64,000 nt of DNA, from positions 2,712 through 66,711 of the forward strand of contig DFXU01000007.1 in assembly GCA_002383285.1 (NCBI GenBank), written 5' to 3'. The notes beneath the pieces were generated by a model. It had not been told where the DNA came from, searched no databases, and was given only the letters and a program-made list of their open reading frames with translations. Position 1 is the first letter of the stretch. Each line of letters begins with the position of its first letter. Of this stretch, positions 19,063-29,156 are shown one piece after another. This DNA is from Bacillales bacterium UBA4100 (GTDB lineage Bacteria; Bacillota; Bacilli; Paenibacillales; UBA4045). The position numbers were made by a program, and so were the translations under genes.

Positions 19063-20316
19063 ATGTATCCAATGCGATTTTTAAAGCTTAGCTACCAAGA
19101 TCGAACATTCACATTCCTTATCGGCATTATAGCGACTTGCACAGTGGTAGGTGTGCTCGCCTATCCTTCTCAAGCGCTCGCTGCTTCTACATTAGGTTTG
19201 CGTATTTGGTGGAATATGGTATTCCCTGCACTTCTACCTTTTTTTATTCTATGCGAAATTGTTATGGCTTATGGTATAGCACATACATTAGGTGTGCTGA
19301 TTGATCCGCTTCTTCGAAGATTATTCCGTTTGCCAGGCATTTCTGGTTGGTCCTTCATAACCGCAATACTTGCAGGATCTCCCGCAGGAGTCGAGGTCGT
19401 AGTTAAGCTTCGCAAGGCAGGCCGAATAGATCAGCTTGCGGGTGAACGAATAACGATGCTCTCCCATTTTGCCAATCCAATCTTCATGATAACCATTGTT
19501 TCTGTGGCTTTTCTACAACGACCTGAACTAGCTTTATTCATCTGTATTGTCCATTACATTTCTGTGCTTGGCTGTGCAATCATATTCCGTAATTATCACT
19601 TACCCAAGGATGTGACTGGAGAGCAGCTGCAAGATGATCCACTGAAATCCATATGGTCCAAGGTGAATATGGCCATTCACGAAGCGCGACAACAGGATCA
19701 ACGTTCTTTCGGACAGCTATTAGGTGAAGCAGTATCTGGCTCCTTGCAGAAATTGATGATGATTGGCGGGACAATCATGATGTTCTCCGTACTTCTAGAA
19801 TTAGTTGCTGTATCAGGTATTTCAGGATTTTTCATAAACATCATACGGTTTCTAGATCATCCCAACTCTCTATGGACCACCAGCTTGGATCCCCTCATCG
19901 CAGGATTATCAGAAGTCCATATCGGTATTTACTCTGTGACACAACTGGAGCATATGTCTATCTTAATAAAAACCGTGTTACTCAGTGGGATGATCGCTTG
20001 GGGTGGATTATCTGTACATCTGCAGGTTCGAGCGCTACTACACGGTACAGACATTCGATATTCACCTTTCTTACTAGCTAGAGCTGTTCAGAGTGTCCTA
20101 TCCATACTTCTCGTCTTCCTATTGTGGCTGCCATACCATCGATGGCTCTCACCAGTTGTTCCAAGCTTTCTGAGTAACGAAGCTCCCTCATTAGTCGTTG
20201 ACACTATGGTATTCTGGGATATGTACGTGCCTTGGCGAAATTCTTCAGTCATATTCATCGTAGTCACTTTCTTGCTTGCAGCAGTAATTTACTCTAACCG
20301 AACGCGGTCTAGCTAA
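19063..20316 (+). CDS. ylbJ: Sporulation integral membrane protein YlbJ
   Basis: 417-aa polytopic membrane protein next to coaD/rsmD, as in the Bacillus ylb cluster. It is the only large plus-strand gene in block A. Confidence 0.75.
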
Positions 20317-20797
20317 ATAATTGTGGATTCTTCCGCTTCAGTGCTTGTTCGACAACTGGTGGTACGAGCTCGGATACAGGTCCTTGGAAGCGGGCAATCT
20401 CCTTCACAATACTTGAGCTCAAGTATGAATACTCAGGACTTGATGTCATGAACAATGTCTCCACTTGATCACCCAATTTACGATTCATCGTCGCTAATTG
20501 TAGCTCATATTCATAATCGGATACAGAACGAATGGCTCTAACAATGACCTTAGCACCCTTTGTTTCCATATAATGAATGAGCAGGTCATTAAAGCTATCC
20601 ACCTCAACGTTCGGCAAGTCATGTATCACCTCATGTAATAATTCAAGACGCTCAGGTATAGTAAATAATGGATTCTTGCTAGCGTTGTTAAGAACTGCAA
20701 CGATCAGATGATCGAATACATCGGCCGCTCGCTTTATAATATCTAGATGCCCCATCGTAAGTGGATCGAAGCTCCCAGGGTACACTGCAATCTTCAT
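20309..20797 (-). CDS. coaD: Phosphopantetheine adenylyltransferase
   Basis: Starts [21 protein letters not shown], which includes the nucleotidyltransferase HxGH motif. The ATG at 20797 overlaps the rsmD stop (ATGA). Confidence 0.93.
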
Positions 20798-21360
20798 TGA
20801 ATCACATCCCCCTTCCATTCATAAATTGACACTGTTGTCTCACCGTATTCTGCCTTTCGAATGCACGCGAACCCGCCAATCTGCTCCGCATAACGTGTTC
20901 GGGTATCATGCTCGAGTACAAGCTTAGCGCCTAGTGCAAGTAAATGGCGTTCCTCAATAATCATTAACAGCTCGTCCATCTTCTTCATGCGGTAAGGTGG
21001 ATCTAGGAATACTAAATCAAATTTAAGCTCTCTACGTTGTAGTACCTTTAGCGCCTGCTCTGCTGAATTTCGATATACCTCTGATTGTTCGATGAGTCCA
21101 GTTGATTGTAAATTCTGTTTAATAATATCCACACTAGCACGTTCAATATCAATGAAGATACCTCGTGCAATTCCTCTACTTATAGCCTCGATACCTAATC
21201 CACCAGCTCCAGCAAATAGATCGAGTACTAAGCCACCGTCAAAGTAAGGACCTATCATACTGAATATGGCTTCTTTCACCTTATCCGTCGTTGGACGTGT
21301 ATTCATACCAGGAACGGCTTTCAAATTCCGACCTCGCACCGAGCCAGATATAACTCTCAC
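20794..21360 (-). CDS. rsmD: 16S rRNA (guanine966-N2)-methyltransferase
   Basis: Contains [13 protein letters not shown] and FLDPPY motifs. It starts at a GTG 7 nt after AAGGAG. Confidence 0.9.
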
Positions 21361-21497
21361 CTTGTATCTCCTTCATTAAAAGCTCGTGTTTAGCACTCAT
21401 AGTACCATATTCTATTTGGTTAGAAAAGACAAAGAAGCAGTAGGTGGCTCGTGAATGCTTTAACATTTTTCATCATGAGGTATAGAACTATGGAAAT

Positions 21498-21668
21498 CGG
21501 TTATCCTTAATATATCGGCGTCGAGAGATGTCGTAGATAACCGCGGAGAAGACTTACGTTTCCCCATAAGATCTTCATCCGGTTTCTCCTCTCCCATGAG
21601 GTGCCCTGCAAGGGGCACCGATATAATCAACACCGCTTAGCCTCAGAGCTCTGCGGTTTTTTCTTGTT
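21498..21668 (+). ncRNA. Candidate orphan structured RNA ending in an intrinsic terminator (family unknown)
   Basis: No credible ORF is present. Helices pair 21498-21505 with 21536-21543 (8 bp), 21544-21556 with 21567-21581 (13 bp, two bulged A), and 21600-21606 with 21613-21619 (7 bp, GC-rich). A hairpin at 21632-21657 is followed by T6, which reads as a terminator only on the plus strand. Confidence 0.4.
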
Positions 21669-21687
21669 TTCTATTCAAGTTTTCAGT

Positions 21688-21716
21688 TTCACCAATACAC
21701 CGTGCATACCTATTAT
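21688..21716 (+). promoter_or_regulatory. Sigma-A-type promoter for ORF 21776
   Basis: TTCACC (21688-21693), a 17-nt spacer, then TATTAT (21711-21716). It lies downstream of the terminator at 21632-21662. Confidence 0.5.
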
Positions 21717-21775
21717 CATTTCGGATAGGCTAAGTTGGTGGACTAACATCAATTCTTGCAAAGGAGATTCCTACG

Positions 21776-22144
21776 ATGCCTGAGAAACCGATCATCGTTT
21801 ATTTTAGAAGTGCTGAACAGGCCAATGAGGCCTTGAACAAGATGAAGCGTGAGTTTGAAGTGATCGAAGCATCAATTGACCAATTCGACGGATACCCCGG
21901 CAACGGTCATGATCCAGGTAATCCTATCACTGGCCATATACCAAGTCTGGGTTCTCTAACACTGGGCGGTGACTTCAACCGTGACGCTGGAATTCTAGCT
22001 GCGACAAGCGTAAGTGCTAGTGGCTTGAGCTCAGGAGAACCCGGCAATATGGTCTCAGGAGTGAACATTATTCTAACCGCCATAGTGCAAGAAGAGAACG
22101 GAGAGCAGGCAATGCAGATCGCGCAGGATTGTGGAGCTGAATAA
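21776..22144 (+). CDS. Hypothetical 122-aa protein with a Gly/Pro/Ser-rich centre
   Basis: ATG lies 9 nt after AAAGGAG. The gene has its own promoter and is followed by two hairpins, including a bidirectional terminator. I did not recognise a family. Confidence 0.55.
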   Translation: MPEKPIIVYFRSAEQANEALNKMKREFEVIEASIDQFDGYPGNGHDPGNPITGHIPSLGSLTLGGDFNRDAGILAATSVSASGLSSGEPGNMVSGVNIILTAIVQEENGEQAMQIAQDCGAE

Positions 22145-22183
22145 TGATTTGCACCGGAGACTAGATCGGTTTTCGGTGCAAAT

Positions 22184-22208
22184 AAAAAAGCACCCGAGGG
22201 TGCTTTTA
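22184..22208. terminator. Bidirectional intrinsic terminator between convergent small genes
   Basis: AAAAAGCACCC-GA-GGGTGCTTTT is flanked by an A-run and a T-run. It is preceded by a second hairpin, TTGCACCG...CGGTGCAA (22149-22181). Confidence 0.75.
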
Positions 22209-22470: not shown

Positions 22471-24633
22471 TCACTGCCTAGAATCATTCCAATCCATATC
22501 CGCATCAAGCGCTACGCTCATGGGAACTACACCGCAAGAAGCATCGGTGCAATCTCGGAAGCGATTCGATGCTGCAATCCGTCTTTGTCTCATGCGCAAG
22601 CTATTCATTCGAGTCTGAGCTAGCTCTGCTCGCAGAACACGCAGATTCTCAGACGATCGCGTAAGATGACCCATAGCAAATTGCTCAGCGTCTAACAAGT
22701 CTATACGCTTATTACGGAATTGCAGATGCAGCAGATCAGCATCCTGTAAGTAGAGAATGTCTCCATCACGGAAGGCCTCTGGTGTCATATGGCCAATCGC
22801 CGCACCGTAGGTAACACCTGAATAGCGTCCATCACTAATTAGAGTCGCTAACCGTTTGAGCTGACGATGAGCATTAATATGCTGCATCGGCGTGAACATT
22901 TCCGGCATCCCGAATGCTTCAGGTCCTTGGCCAGAGATAACAATAGCCAGCTTAAGCCATTCATTGCTGACCGATTTATCGAAAATCTCTTCATAATTCA
23001 ACAGCTTAAGCTCATTCGTATTCATGTTAGCATTATGGTTAGCCATAACAATCAAATGTTCCAGTTTGAATATTCGTTTCGATTTTAATTTATCCAATAA
23101 GTGAATATCTAATAGATGCTGGTTAGCTTGCTCCTCATTCTCGAAGTAAAGAATGAAAGCCACTTTGTTATCGAATTGATCCAATTGCTTTGTTGGCATC
23201 CCGCTTACTTTTACTACAGCCTGATTAAAGAAATTACCTCTCAATACATCAACACCACTAAATTGACGTCTTGGCTTACTCAGGATAATCGGATTATCCT
23301 TCACACCATCCGCGCTAAGCCCTTCAGTGTTTGCAAGCCTTTCCCGCCAGGTTTGACCACTCACGGTAGGAGCATCCAGATCCATGGGTACACCATTACG
23401 CCCAAGCTCATAGATCAGTGTTTCCATCCCGCGAATTTCACCTGAGCAGCATTGCTGTGCAAGCGCATAGATGTCTCGTCCCTCTGTGAGGCTATAATCA
23501 TACAAGTCAGGAATGGGATACTCCATCAATACACGCTCAATGTCCTCAAGTGAAAAATCATATCCAGCATATATCATTGCACCAACCATATGCATAATCA
23601 GATTAGACGACCCACCACTAGCACTATGAAGCCTGATTGTATTCTTAATATTAGCAATCACTAGCTTGCTTACGCTAAATTCTCGTTTATTCACTATGAA
23701 GAATAGCGCTTCTATTGCCTTATCAACCTGCATGAATGTTGGAGGGTCTGTCAACAGCTCAAGGGCTGGATATACGACACCAAATCCTGCCGTGACTTCT
23801 CTAGAGCTGTTCCCTGTTCCATGGAATGCGCATATTCCACCCTTGGCATCACAAGTATTCACAGCGAGACTTTTCTCGAAAAACTTTTGCTGCTCCTCGG
23901 TCAATATGCCTCTTTCGATCGCTCTTAGGAATACACCCTGGAATGCCGTATTCGACGAACACTGCAGAATATAGCTAACAGCTTCATCGATATCTGATGC
24001 AATATCATCATAACCCGCCACAGTCGCAAGTGACGCTAATTGAGCCAGCTCCCTTCTCAGGTCATCTGGAATGCTGCCACCCTTAAGTACATGGGAAGGG
24101 CAGAAGCTAGCGAATACAGGTGCTTCCCCCCGATATTGTCTTACACGATCTAGATGAGCGAGACCACTTAACACACCGAGCGGCTGTTTATCACAGCCCT
24201 GAATAACGAATGCACCATGATAGGAATGGGCTTCCATCTGATTCACGACCATCTCAGCAATTACGTTACGGCTCTGCAGCGAGTATGACATCCCCATATT
24301 ACTCTGTGCGGTTCCATCACACAGCACAGGCGTACTGAAATAGAATGGGACTCCACCATGCTTCCATATACTAATAGCAGCTTTGGATACGGTTTCATAA
24401 TCAAGAATATGCGCAGGGTGATCTGAGGAGCCGCCGATAATAGCAATCCGAGGAGCATTGTATTCAAGTCGATCATATATGTTCTCCAGCGTCCAATCTG
24501 ATGGACCTCCTGTATAATCCGCTCCCAACTCGCGTCGGGATCGATCTAGAAGTCCAGCAACAGTTATTGGCTCGTTGGCCTTTCCTTGTACATTATCTCT
24601 GTAAGGATTAATATCGCTATTCATCTTAATCAT
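22471..24633 (-). CDS. IlvD/Edd-family dehydratase, long YjhG/YagF-like (sugar-acid dehydratase-like) variant
   Basis: 720 aa with family motifs LCDGTAQSNMGM, QGCDKQPLG, GGICAFHGTGNS and LISDGRYSGVTYGAAIGHMTPEA. It also carries an extra internal segment and a basic C-terminal tail. Confidence 0.8.
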   Translation of the reverse strand: MIKMNSDINPYRDNVQGKANEPITVAGLLDRSRRELGADYTGGPSDWTLENIYDRLEYNAPRIAIIGGSSDHPAHILDYETVSKAAISIWKHGGVPFYFSTPVLCDGTAQSNMGMSYSLQSRNVIAEMVVNQMEAHSYHGAFVIQGCDKQPLGVLSGLAHLDRVRQYRGEAPVFASFCPSHVLKGGSIPDDLRRELAQLASLATVAGYDDIASDIDEAVSYILQCSSNTAFQGVFLRAIERGILTEEQQKFFEKSLAVNTCDAKGGICAFHGTGNSSREVTAGFGVVYPALELLTDPPTFMQVDKAIEALFFIVNKREFSVSKLVIANIKNTIRLHSASGGSSNLIMHMVGAMIYAGYDFSLEDIERVLMEYPIPDLYDYSLTEGRDIYALAQQCCSGEIRGMETLIYELGRNGVPMDLDAPTVSGQTWRERLANTEGLSADGVKDNPIILSKPRRQFSGVDVLRGNFFNQAVVKVSGMPTKQLDQFDNKVAFILYFENEEQANQHLLDIHLLDKLKSKRIFKLEHLIVMANHNANMNTNELKLLNYEEIFDKSVSNEWLKLAIVISGQGPEAFGMPEMFTPMQHINAHRQLKRLATLISDGRYSGVTYGAAIGHMTPEAFRDGDILYLQDADLLHLQFRNKRIDLLDAEQFAMGHLTRSSENLRVLRAELAQTRMNSLRMRQRRIAASNRFRDCTDASCGVVPMSVALDADMDWNDSRQ

Positions 24634-28907: not shown

Positions 28908-29034
28908 GTGCATCTCTCCATTCTCTCTATTTGTCCCTTAACCTTTTACCATAATCTGCTCTCTCTCATAGGCGTCATTAAACATAGAAAAGACGCCCCT
29001 CAAGAGGAAAGCGCCATAAGTCACATAGATCGAT

Positions 29035-29135
29035 TCAGTCCGATTCCTACGCTGGCATTATCCAGATCAGGTTGCGGGTCAGTATCTTGAGGGATACTCT
29101 CTCAGCCGGCCAATTCCAGCTCCCCGTGGAAAACT
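29035..29135 (-). promoter_or_regulatory. TPP (THI-box) riboswitch
   Basis: The minus strand reads CACGGGGAGCUGG..GGCUGAGAGAGUAUCCC..GACCCGCAACCUGAUCUGGAUAAUGCCAGCGUAGGAAUCGG. It contains the conserved CUGAGA and ACCUGAUCUGGAUAAUGCCAGCGUAGG cores. Confidence 0.88.
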
Positions 29136-29156
29136 ATTAGGTTAGTTACATGAATC

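Follow-up and report, generated by a model that had tools for sequence, protein, structure and literature searches.

The structured element in the gap between rsmD on the minus strand and the open reading frame (ORF) at 21776 on the plus strand is very probably an ortholog of CsfG (segment S547 of Bacillus subtilis), that is, a trans-acting small RNA (sRNA) whose gene lies on the plus strand, divergent from rsmD, and whose length is about 150 nt. The gap measures 415 bp, as given in an earlier reading of the DNA made without database searches (the sequence-only reading), in which the element was called an orphan. This label was abandoned, since the element is a known sRNA: CsfG is the reverse complement of the Rfam family RF00516, and the CsfG element of the window (the whole stretch of DNA that was analysed, 64,000 nucleotides) is already known and not novel. 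The CsfG sRNA was reportedly described by Marchais et al. in 2011 (RNA Biol 8:358), and the 'ylbH leader' is said to have been catalogued by Barrick et al. in 2004 as an orphan riboswitch candidate. The window element is one more ortholog of this sRNA, and its identification matters little for the window.

The family was recognized in an Rfam scan of the whole 64-kb window, a check that the sequence-only reading had proposed with RF00516 on the minus strand named among its targets. RF00516, 'ylbH leader', was matched significantly and full-length at 21541-21665 on the minus strand, with 62.5 bits compared with a gathering score of 50 and E = 1.2e-10. In a permissive scan of 21380-21800, RF00516 aside, no family fell below E = 3.9. 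The RsaE covariance model gave no match in the same region even at E <= 10, in agreement with the earlier statement that the element is not a recognisable RsaE homologue. Moreover, the RF00516 model scored 130.7 bits in the ylbG-rsmD spacer of Bacillus stercoris, a close relative of B. subtilis, and this spacer is the published csfG locus. The features of the window locus were as follows.

19063-20316, plus strand: YlbJ-like membrane protein of sporulation (237.9 bits with TIGR02871, short of the 304.65 cut-off).
20794-21360, minus strand: rsmD (ylbH) (TIGR00095, 169.8 bits compared with a cut-off of 117.5).
21480-21484, plus strand: putative -35 element GTATA of the sigma-F/sigma-G (forespore) type, conserved among related loci and matching the consensus.
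21499-21508, plus strand: putative -10 element GGTTATCCTT, 14 nt after the -35 element.
21514-21663, plus strand: predicted CsfG transcript of about 150 nt, with the 5' end placed from the promoter position (+/- 3 nt) and the 3' end in the T-run.
21516-21533, plus strand: P1, 5' hairpin CGGCGUC / GAUGUCG of 7 bp including two G·U pairs, with a GAGA loop, from folds and covariation.
21541-21665, minus strand: match to RF00516 ('ylbH leader'), which corresponds to CsfG in reverse complement with P1 left out.
21544-21556 / 21567-21581, plus strand: P2, helix of 13 bp in which A21571 and A21577 are bulged.
21559-21567, plus strand: C-rich region 1 (UUUCCCCAU), situated in the loop of P2, mean probability of being unpaired 0.81.
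21582-21599, plus strand: single-stranded linker GUUUCUCCUCUCCCAUGA with C-rich regions 2 and 3, mean probability of being unpaired 0.61.
21600-21619, plus strand: P3, GC-rich hairpin GGUGCCCU-GCAA-GGGGCACC, from the fold, with a GNRA loop.
21620-21631, plus strand: linker between P3 and the terminator.
21632-21662, plus strand: intrinsic terminator, ACCGC...GCGGU stem followed by T6, from the fold and the relatives.

To gather related loci, GTDB genomes were searched for the pattern TTTCCCCA-N14-18-TTTCTCCTCT, and at least 120 rows were returned. Among the matches listed, 86 were true family members, giving 87 loci together with the window, and the other rows were chance matches in unrelated phyla. 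The true members among the matches listed came from Paenibacillus, Cohnella, Brevibacillus, Bacillus, Neobacillus, Thermoactinomycetaceae, Alicyclobacillaceae and others, and the closest relatives among them were Paenibacillaceae. On whether the host is an endospore former, the analysis offers this kinship and the YlbJ-like neighbour, which scores below its curated cut-off. After the removal of duplicates, 85 loci among these matches were tabulated for the promoter. The 70 distinct 5' halves among the matches listed formed alignment A1, which was the basis for the pairing counts of P1 and P2. Two variant forms were also observed. A CsfG-like element truncated at its 5' end was found in a Tepidanaerobacter sp. 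metagenome-assembled genome (L094:3021-3120), where CATACTATAAT, resembling a sigma-G -10 element, lies directly upstream and the RNA would begin just before UUUCCCCAUAAGCUCUUCCUCCGGUUUCUCCUCUCCC. This element has neither P1 nor the 5' arm of P2, so its C-rich region 1 would be unstructured. A further divergent CsfG variant was seen in Alicyclobacillus tolerans (L098).

The Rfam match has the orientation of rsmD, on the minus strand, and is located upstream of that gene. It would suit a 5' leader acting in cis, or an orphan riboswitch, for rsmD (ylbH), carried in the rsmD mRNA and controlling rsmD-coaD. The near-universal linkage of the element with rsmD in the loci among the matches listed is consistent with such a leader, as is the finding that no clear rsmD promoter lies between rsmD and the element, so that an rsmD transcript might start beyond it. 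However, this reading was judged highly improbable. In the northern blots of Dambach et al. 2013 (PMC3574147), the B. subtilis ylbH 'orphan riboswitch' was probed on both strands; the ylbH strand gave no detectable RNA, and the strong signal on the reverse strand was CsfG. In addition, at its 5' end the Rfam model has an A-run and then a hairpin, the arrangement of a terminator read in reverse.

The comparative signals were in agreement with the northern blots. Across P1 and P2 in the 70 sequences, G·U cells on the plus strand numbered 70 compared with 6 A·C cells, the latter being those that read as G·U on the minus strand. GNRA loops accounted for 21/60 of the tetraloops on the plus strand and 1/53 on the minus strand in the loci among the matches listed, and the window itself has GAGA in P1 and GCAA in P3. 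The covarying P1 of the window falls apart on the minus strand, with -1.0 kcal/mol compared with -9.0 kcal/mol on the plus strand. Among the matches listed, P1 was more stable on the plus strand in 53/69 sequences, and P3 with the terminator in 55/65. Per-helix tests of this kind replaced the comparison of whole-transcript minimum free energy (MFE), in which the two strands differed by a mean of 0.3 kcal/mol (p = 0.23) over 83 loci among the matches listed. Of the strand signals, only the invariant P2 favoured the rsmD strand: it was more stable on the minus strand (-14.4 compared with -8.9 kcal/mol) in 68/69 sequences among the matches listed. A fixed C·A beside the P2 loop becomes U·G on the minus strand. 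This strand preference of P2 carries no comparative information, because the C·A position never varies, whereas every strand signal from variable positions favours the plus strand. The stability of P2 on the minus strand may explain the original choice of strand for RF00516. The sequence-only reading had named a significant minus-strand match to the ylbH leader as a ground for refutation, and such a match was obtained. It does not overturn the plus-strand reading, since the B. subtilis northern blots and the strand-specific comparative signals agree on the plus strand. The strand and the class given to RF00516 are contradicted by the B. subtilis experiments and by the comparative evidence of this analysis.

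The conserved promoter points away from rsmD, which also speaks against the rsmD leader. In B. subtilis, sigma-F and sigma-G direct the transcription of CsfG in the forespore. For sigma-F of that species the consensus is GTATA at -35 and GGNAANAMTR at -10, and for sigma-G it is GNATA and CAWAMTA. The motif G[TA]ATA was found 74-90 nt upstream of the TTTCCCCA motif of the C-rich loop in 86/87 true loci among the matches listed, the window included. In the 85 loci tabulated among these matches, this -35 motif was followed, 14-15 nt on, by GG(n)CATAAT or GG(n)CATCCTT, and counted from the -35 element, G was present at +19 in 76% and at +20 in 95%. The Paenibacillus relatives have GGnCATCCTT as the -10 element. 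GTATA in the window fits the -35 consensus of both sigma factors, and the -10 element matches 5/8 specified positions for sigma-F and 4/7 for sigma-G. Accordingly, GTATA-N14-GGTTATCCTT at 21480-21508 is a predicted promoter of the sigma-F/G type on the strand of the sRNA. The sequence-only reading had overlooked it and had offered TTTAAC-16-TATAGA as a weak promoter. This sigma-A-type site was rejected: the conserved promoter is of the forespore type, and 'TATAGA' overlaps its -35 element. An A-tract followed by T's (AAAAAATT) was observed 10-30 nt upstream of the csfG -35 element in many related loci (L022, L032, L056), and is weaker in the window, at 21460-21470. It may serve as an UP-like element or belong to an rsmD promoter placed back to back with that of csfG.

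The RNA probably extends from about 21514 to 21663. Its start near 21514 was deduced from the positions of the -35 and -10 elements, and the exact 5' end should be read accordingly. The predicted transcripts had a median length of 148 nt in 83 loci among the matches listed, and the CsfG peak reported for B. subtilis was 136 nt (PMC3574147). The 5' boundary that had been drawn earlier at an 8-bp helix, CGGTTATC (21498-21505) with GATAACCG (21536-21543), was not retained. The two arms are indeed complementary, and this part of the claim stood. However, the helix is not conserved: at the homologous positions, 2-6/8 were paired in 25 other equally spaced loci, and 8/8 in the window only, among the matches listed. 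In addition, the 5' arm is probably not transcribed, because it overlaps the conserved -10 element.

Transcription would end at the hairpin of 21632-21657 and the T6 that follows it, both correctly located in the sequence-only reading. The stem is modest, with 5 bp, an internal loop and 3 bp (-11.7 kcal/mol), and it is weaker than the terminators of most relatives among the matches listed. No terminator was called by a simple scanner on 21300-21800, which missed this one because the stem has an internal loop. Among the matches listed, a hairpin with a T-run was present on the plus strand in 83/87 loci. For the minus strand, a first terminator control was drawn over too broad a region (48 hits), and counts of T-tails and A-runs were used instead. 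In 81/81 distinct cases among the matches listed, the 8 nt following the hairpin contained 5 T or more, compared with an A-run ahead of it in 12/81. The promoter, the T-tail and the pairing asymmetry support the earlier proposal of an independent plus-strand sRNA with its own terminator rather than a leader.

The weak terminator also has to be considered together with the ORF downstream. The element is co-oriented with ORF 21776 and lies 113 nt upstream of its start codon, and some read-through is plausible with a comparatively weak terminator. The element could thus be a 5' leader or attenuator of this ORF, with the hairpin and T6 as a regulated terminator. This is almost certainly wrong: the ORF has no homolog in the 86 related element-bearing loci among the matches listed, the downstream gene of the B. 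subtilis group (ylbG) is convergent, and the ORF has a separate sigma-A-like promoter. The latter, TTCACC-17-TATTAT at 21688-21716, had been pointed out before; it has 9/12 matches and lies between the terminator and the ORF. ORF 21776-22144 (plus strand) encodes 122 aa, has a good ribosome-binding site and a bidirectional-looking terminator at about 22150-22200, and occupies the place of ylbG in Bacillus. No Pfam or NCBIfam match was obtained for it. One may speculate that read-through from the csfG terminator could make ORF 21776 forespore-expressed.

For the CsfG transcript itself, a stable fold was obtained. The region 21490-21668 folded on the plus strand with -60.3 kcal/mol (z = -4.0), and 0/200 shuffles were as stable, in line with the dense structure noted from the sequence; the minus strand of the same region had z = -3.4. 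The predicted 150-nt transcript had an MFE of -52.7 kcal/mol, with P1, P2, P3 and the terminator all present. P1, which the sequence-only reading had missed, was supported by covariation: both sides were changed in 6/9 aligned pairs, and 0/500 shuffles reached the observed score (70 sequences). For example, column pair 10/31 of alignment A1 was AU in 35 sequences, GC in 27 and GU in 4. The 13-bp helix P2, with its two bulged A residues and 10-nt loop, was confirmed as described before. It was paired in 99.1% of the cells and nearly invariant in the 70 sequences, and its loop, CGTTTCCCCA, also written CGUUUCCCCA, was invariant. The GC-rich helix also proved correct, with GGTGCCC(T) at 21600-21607 pairing with (G)GGGCACC at 21612-21619. 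The relatives too have a hairpin at the position of P3, with unrelated sequences.

An alternative helix was returned by RNAalifold, which on the 5'-half alignment preferred to pair the 5' arm of P2 with GGUUUCUCC. It was not accepted as the main fold: with it the window reached -43.6 compared with -52.7 kcal/mol, a cost of 9.1 kcal/mol if forced, and no two-sided covariation was seen. This pairing, 21545-21554 (GGAGAAGACU) with 21581-21589 (GGUUUCUCC), excludes P2 and would hide C-rich region 2, and a conformational switch between the two modelled structures is possible. A reading of the region as small ORFs (two of 57 and 34 aa on the minus strand and one of 60 aa on the plus strand) was also rejected, because the invariant nucleotide runs are long and without codon periodicity.

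In the literature, CsfG, RoxS and FsrA form the group of three B. subtilis sRNAs that carry C-rich regions, and CsfG has three of these regions. Three conserved C-rich regions in unpaired contexts were likewise found in the window element, in the UUUCCCCAU loop and the UUUCUCCUCUCCC linker. The single-stranded stretch UUUCUCCUCUCCC and the linker TTTCTCCTCTCCC were both invariant in the 70 sequences. The C-rich regions were invariant across Bacillaceae, Paenibacillaceae, Thermoactinomycetaceae and Alicyclobacillaceae in the loci among the matches listed. The earlier comparison of exposed C-rich motifs with those of RoxS/RsaE was thus well chosen, as the literature places CsfG beside RoxS and FsrA. 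As read from its sequence, the linker is complementary to Shine-Dalgarno sequences of the GGAGG type. When the window was searched for longer stretches complementary to C-rich regions 2 and 3, only the locus itself and one site with 2 mismatches were returned, no more than expected by chance. For RoxS and FsrA, the action proposed is pairing of their C-rich regions with G-rich Shine-Dalgarno sequences. CsfG co-precipitates with Hfq (PMC3574147). The expression and Hfq data on CsfG in the literature come from experiments on B. subtilis and B. anthracis only, and no mRNA target or phenotype of CsfG has been reported there for any species.

From these features a way of working may be proposed for the source organism, where the promoter type and the B. 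subtilis data suggest expression in the forespore. RNA polymerase with sigma-F and then sigma-G would start at GTATA-N14-GGTTATCCTT, near 21514, and would stop at the hairpin and T6 of 21632-21662. The RNA would fold into P1, P2 presenting UUUCCCCAU in its apical loop, the single-stranded UUUCUCCUCUCCC, the P3 GNRA hairpin and the terminator. By analogy with RoxS and FsrA, the invariant C-rich regions would most likely pair with the G-rich Shine-Dalgarno regions of target mRNAs. Such pairing would alter the translation or stability of the targets in the developing spore.

The gene order around the element was conserved. Among the matches listed, rsmD was divergent and upstream in 81/82 loci, at a median of about 200 nt, and rsmD, coaD and ylbJ had the order and orientation of the window in 81/82, 73/74 and 66/66 loci, respectively. 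The arrangement is the same in Bacillus. This strict linkage with rsmD is a clue to CsfG. It would be explained if both strands were functional, with CsfG also acting as a cis-antisense RNA to a long 5' UTR of rsmD-coaD, or by transcriptional interference, and lowering rsmD-coaD in the forespore. An RNA-seq table of B. licheniformis gives CsfG the code 'A misc' and sets ylbG and ylbH against it; we take 'A' to stand for antisense, which would favour this dual role. The search for an rsmD promoter on the minus strand of the window gave no better than an 8/12 match, which leaves room for this role. On the other hand, no sigma-A-like minus-strand promoter with at least 9/12 matches was found in 21300-21800. 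Minus-strand promoter matches did not favour the stretch between rsmD and csfG (16/83 loci) over that beyond the terminator (12/83), among the matches listed. Moreover, the window has no co-oriented gene upstream of rsmD from which read-through could come, ORF 21776 being on the plus strand, and no minus-strand transcript was detected in B. subtilis (PMC3574147). The invariant, exposed C-rich regions argue for targets in trans. A dual role is hence regarded as unlikely, and a trans-acting CsfG is preferred. If the dual role were true, 16S rRNA m2G966 methylation and CoA synthesis would be switched off in the forespore.

Two further observations were made in the window. A full-length TPP riboswitch (RF00059) was found at 29027-29136 on the minus strand, with 64.6 bits compared with a gathering score of 54.3. 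In addition, 22471-24633 (minus strand) encodes a 720-aa protein related to the IlvD/Edd dehydratases. Its best score was 182.8 bits compared with a cut-off of 644, far under every curated cut-off, and it is about 150 aa longer than IlvD. It is a divergent member of the family.

The result bears mainly on annotation. Automated annotation based on Rfam will call this locus a minus-strand cis-regulatory leader, and both strand and class will be wrong. The northern blots are matched by the comparative signals (promoter, T-tail, G·U asymmetry, GNRA loops and P1), and these could support a re-orientation of RF00516.

Compared with known systems, the window element resembles RoxS/RsaE and FsrA in having a terminator hairpin and, in loops and linkers, exposed C-rich motifs capable of pairing with ribosome-binding sites rich in G. 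However, these sRNAs have no sequence or structure homology to it, and they differ in their regulators, which are ResD/Rex for RoxS, Fur for FsrA and sigma-F/G for CsfG; unlike them, CsfG has no validated target. With Rfam RF00516 the element shares the sequence family, at a score above the gathering cut-off. The Rfam model differs in that it was built on the strand opposite to CsfG and classed as a cis-regulatory leader, with the P1 hairpin outside the model and the CsfG terminator, read backwards, as model positions 1-30. Within the CsfG family, the -10 element of Bacillus differs, and that of the window has the Paenibacillaceae form (C/T)ATCCTT. CsfG of Bacillus has a long P3 and a terminator, whereas in the window a linker of 12 nt separates a short GC-rich P3 with a GNRA loop from a terminator of its own, which is weaker. 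In most Paenibacillus loci one hairpin also serves as the terminator, unlike the P3 and separate terminator of the window. Downstream, the convergent ylbG of the B. subtilis group is replaced in the window by an unrelated, co-oriented ORF. The main features are nevertheless those of B. subtilis CsfG (S547): the window element has the same covariance-model family, the same locus and the same strand relative to rsmD, and it shares the promoter of the sigma-F/G type, the three C-rich regions, the Rho-independent terminator and the length of about 150 nt.
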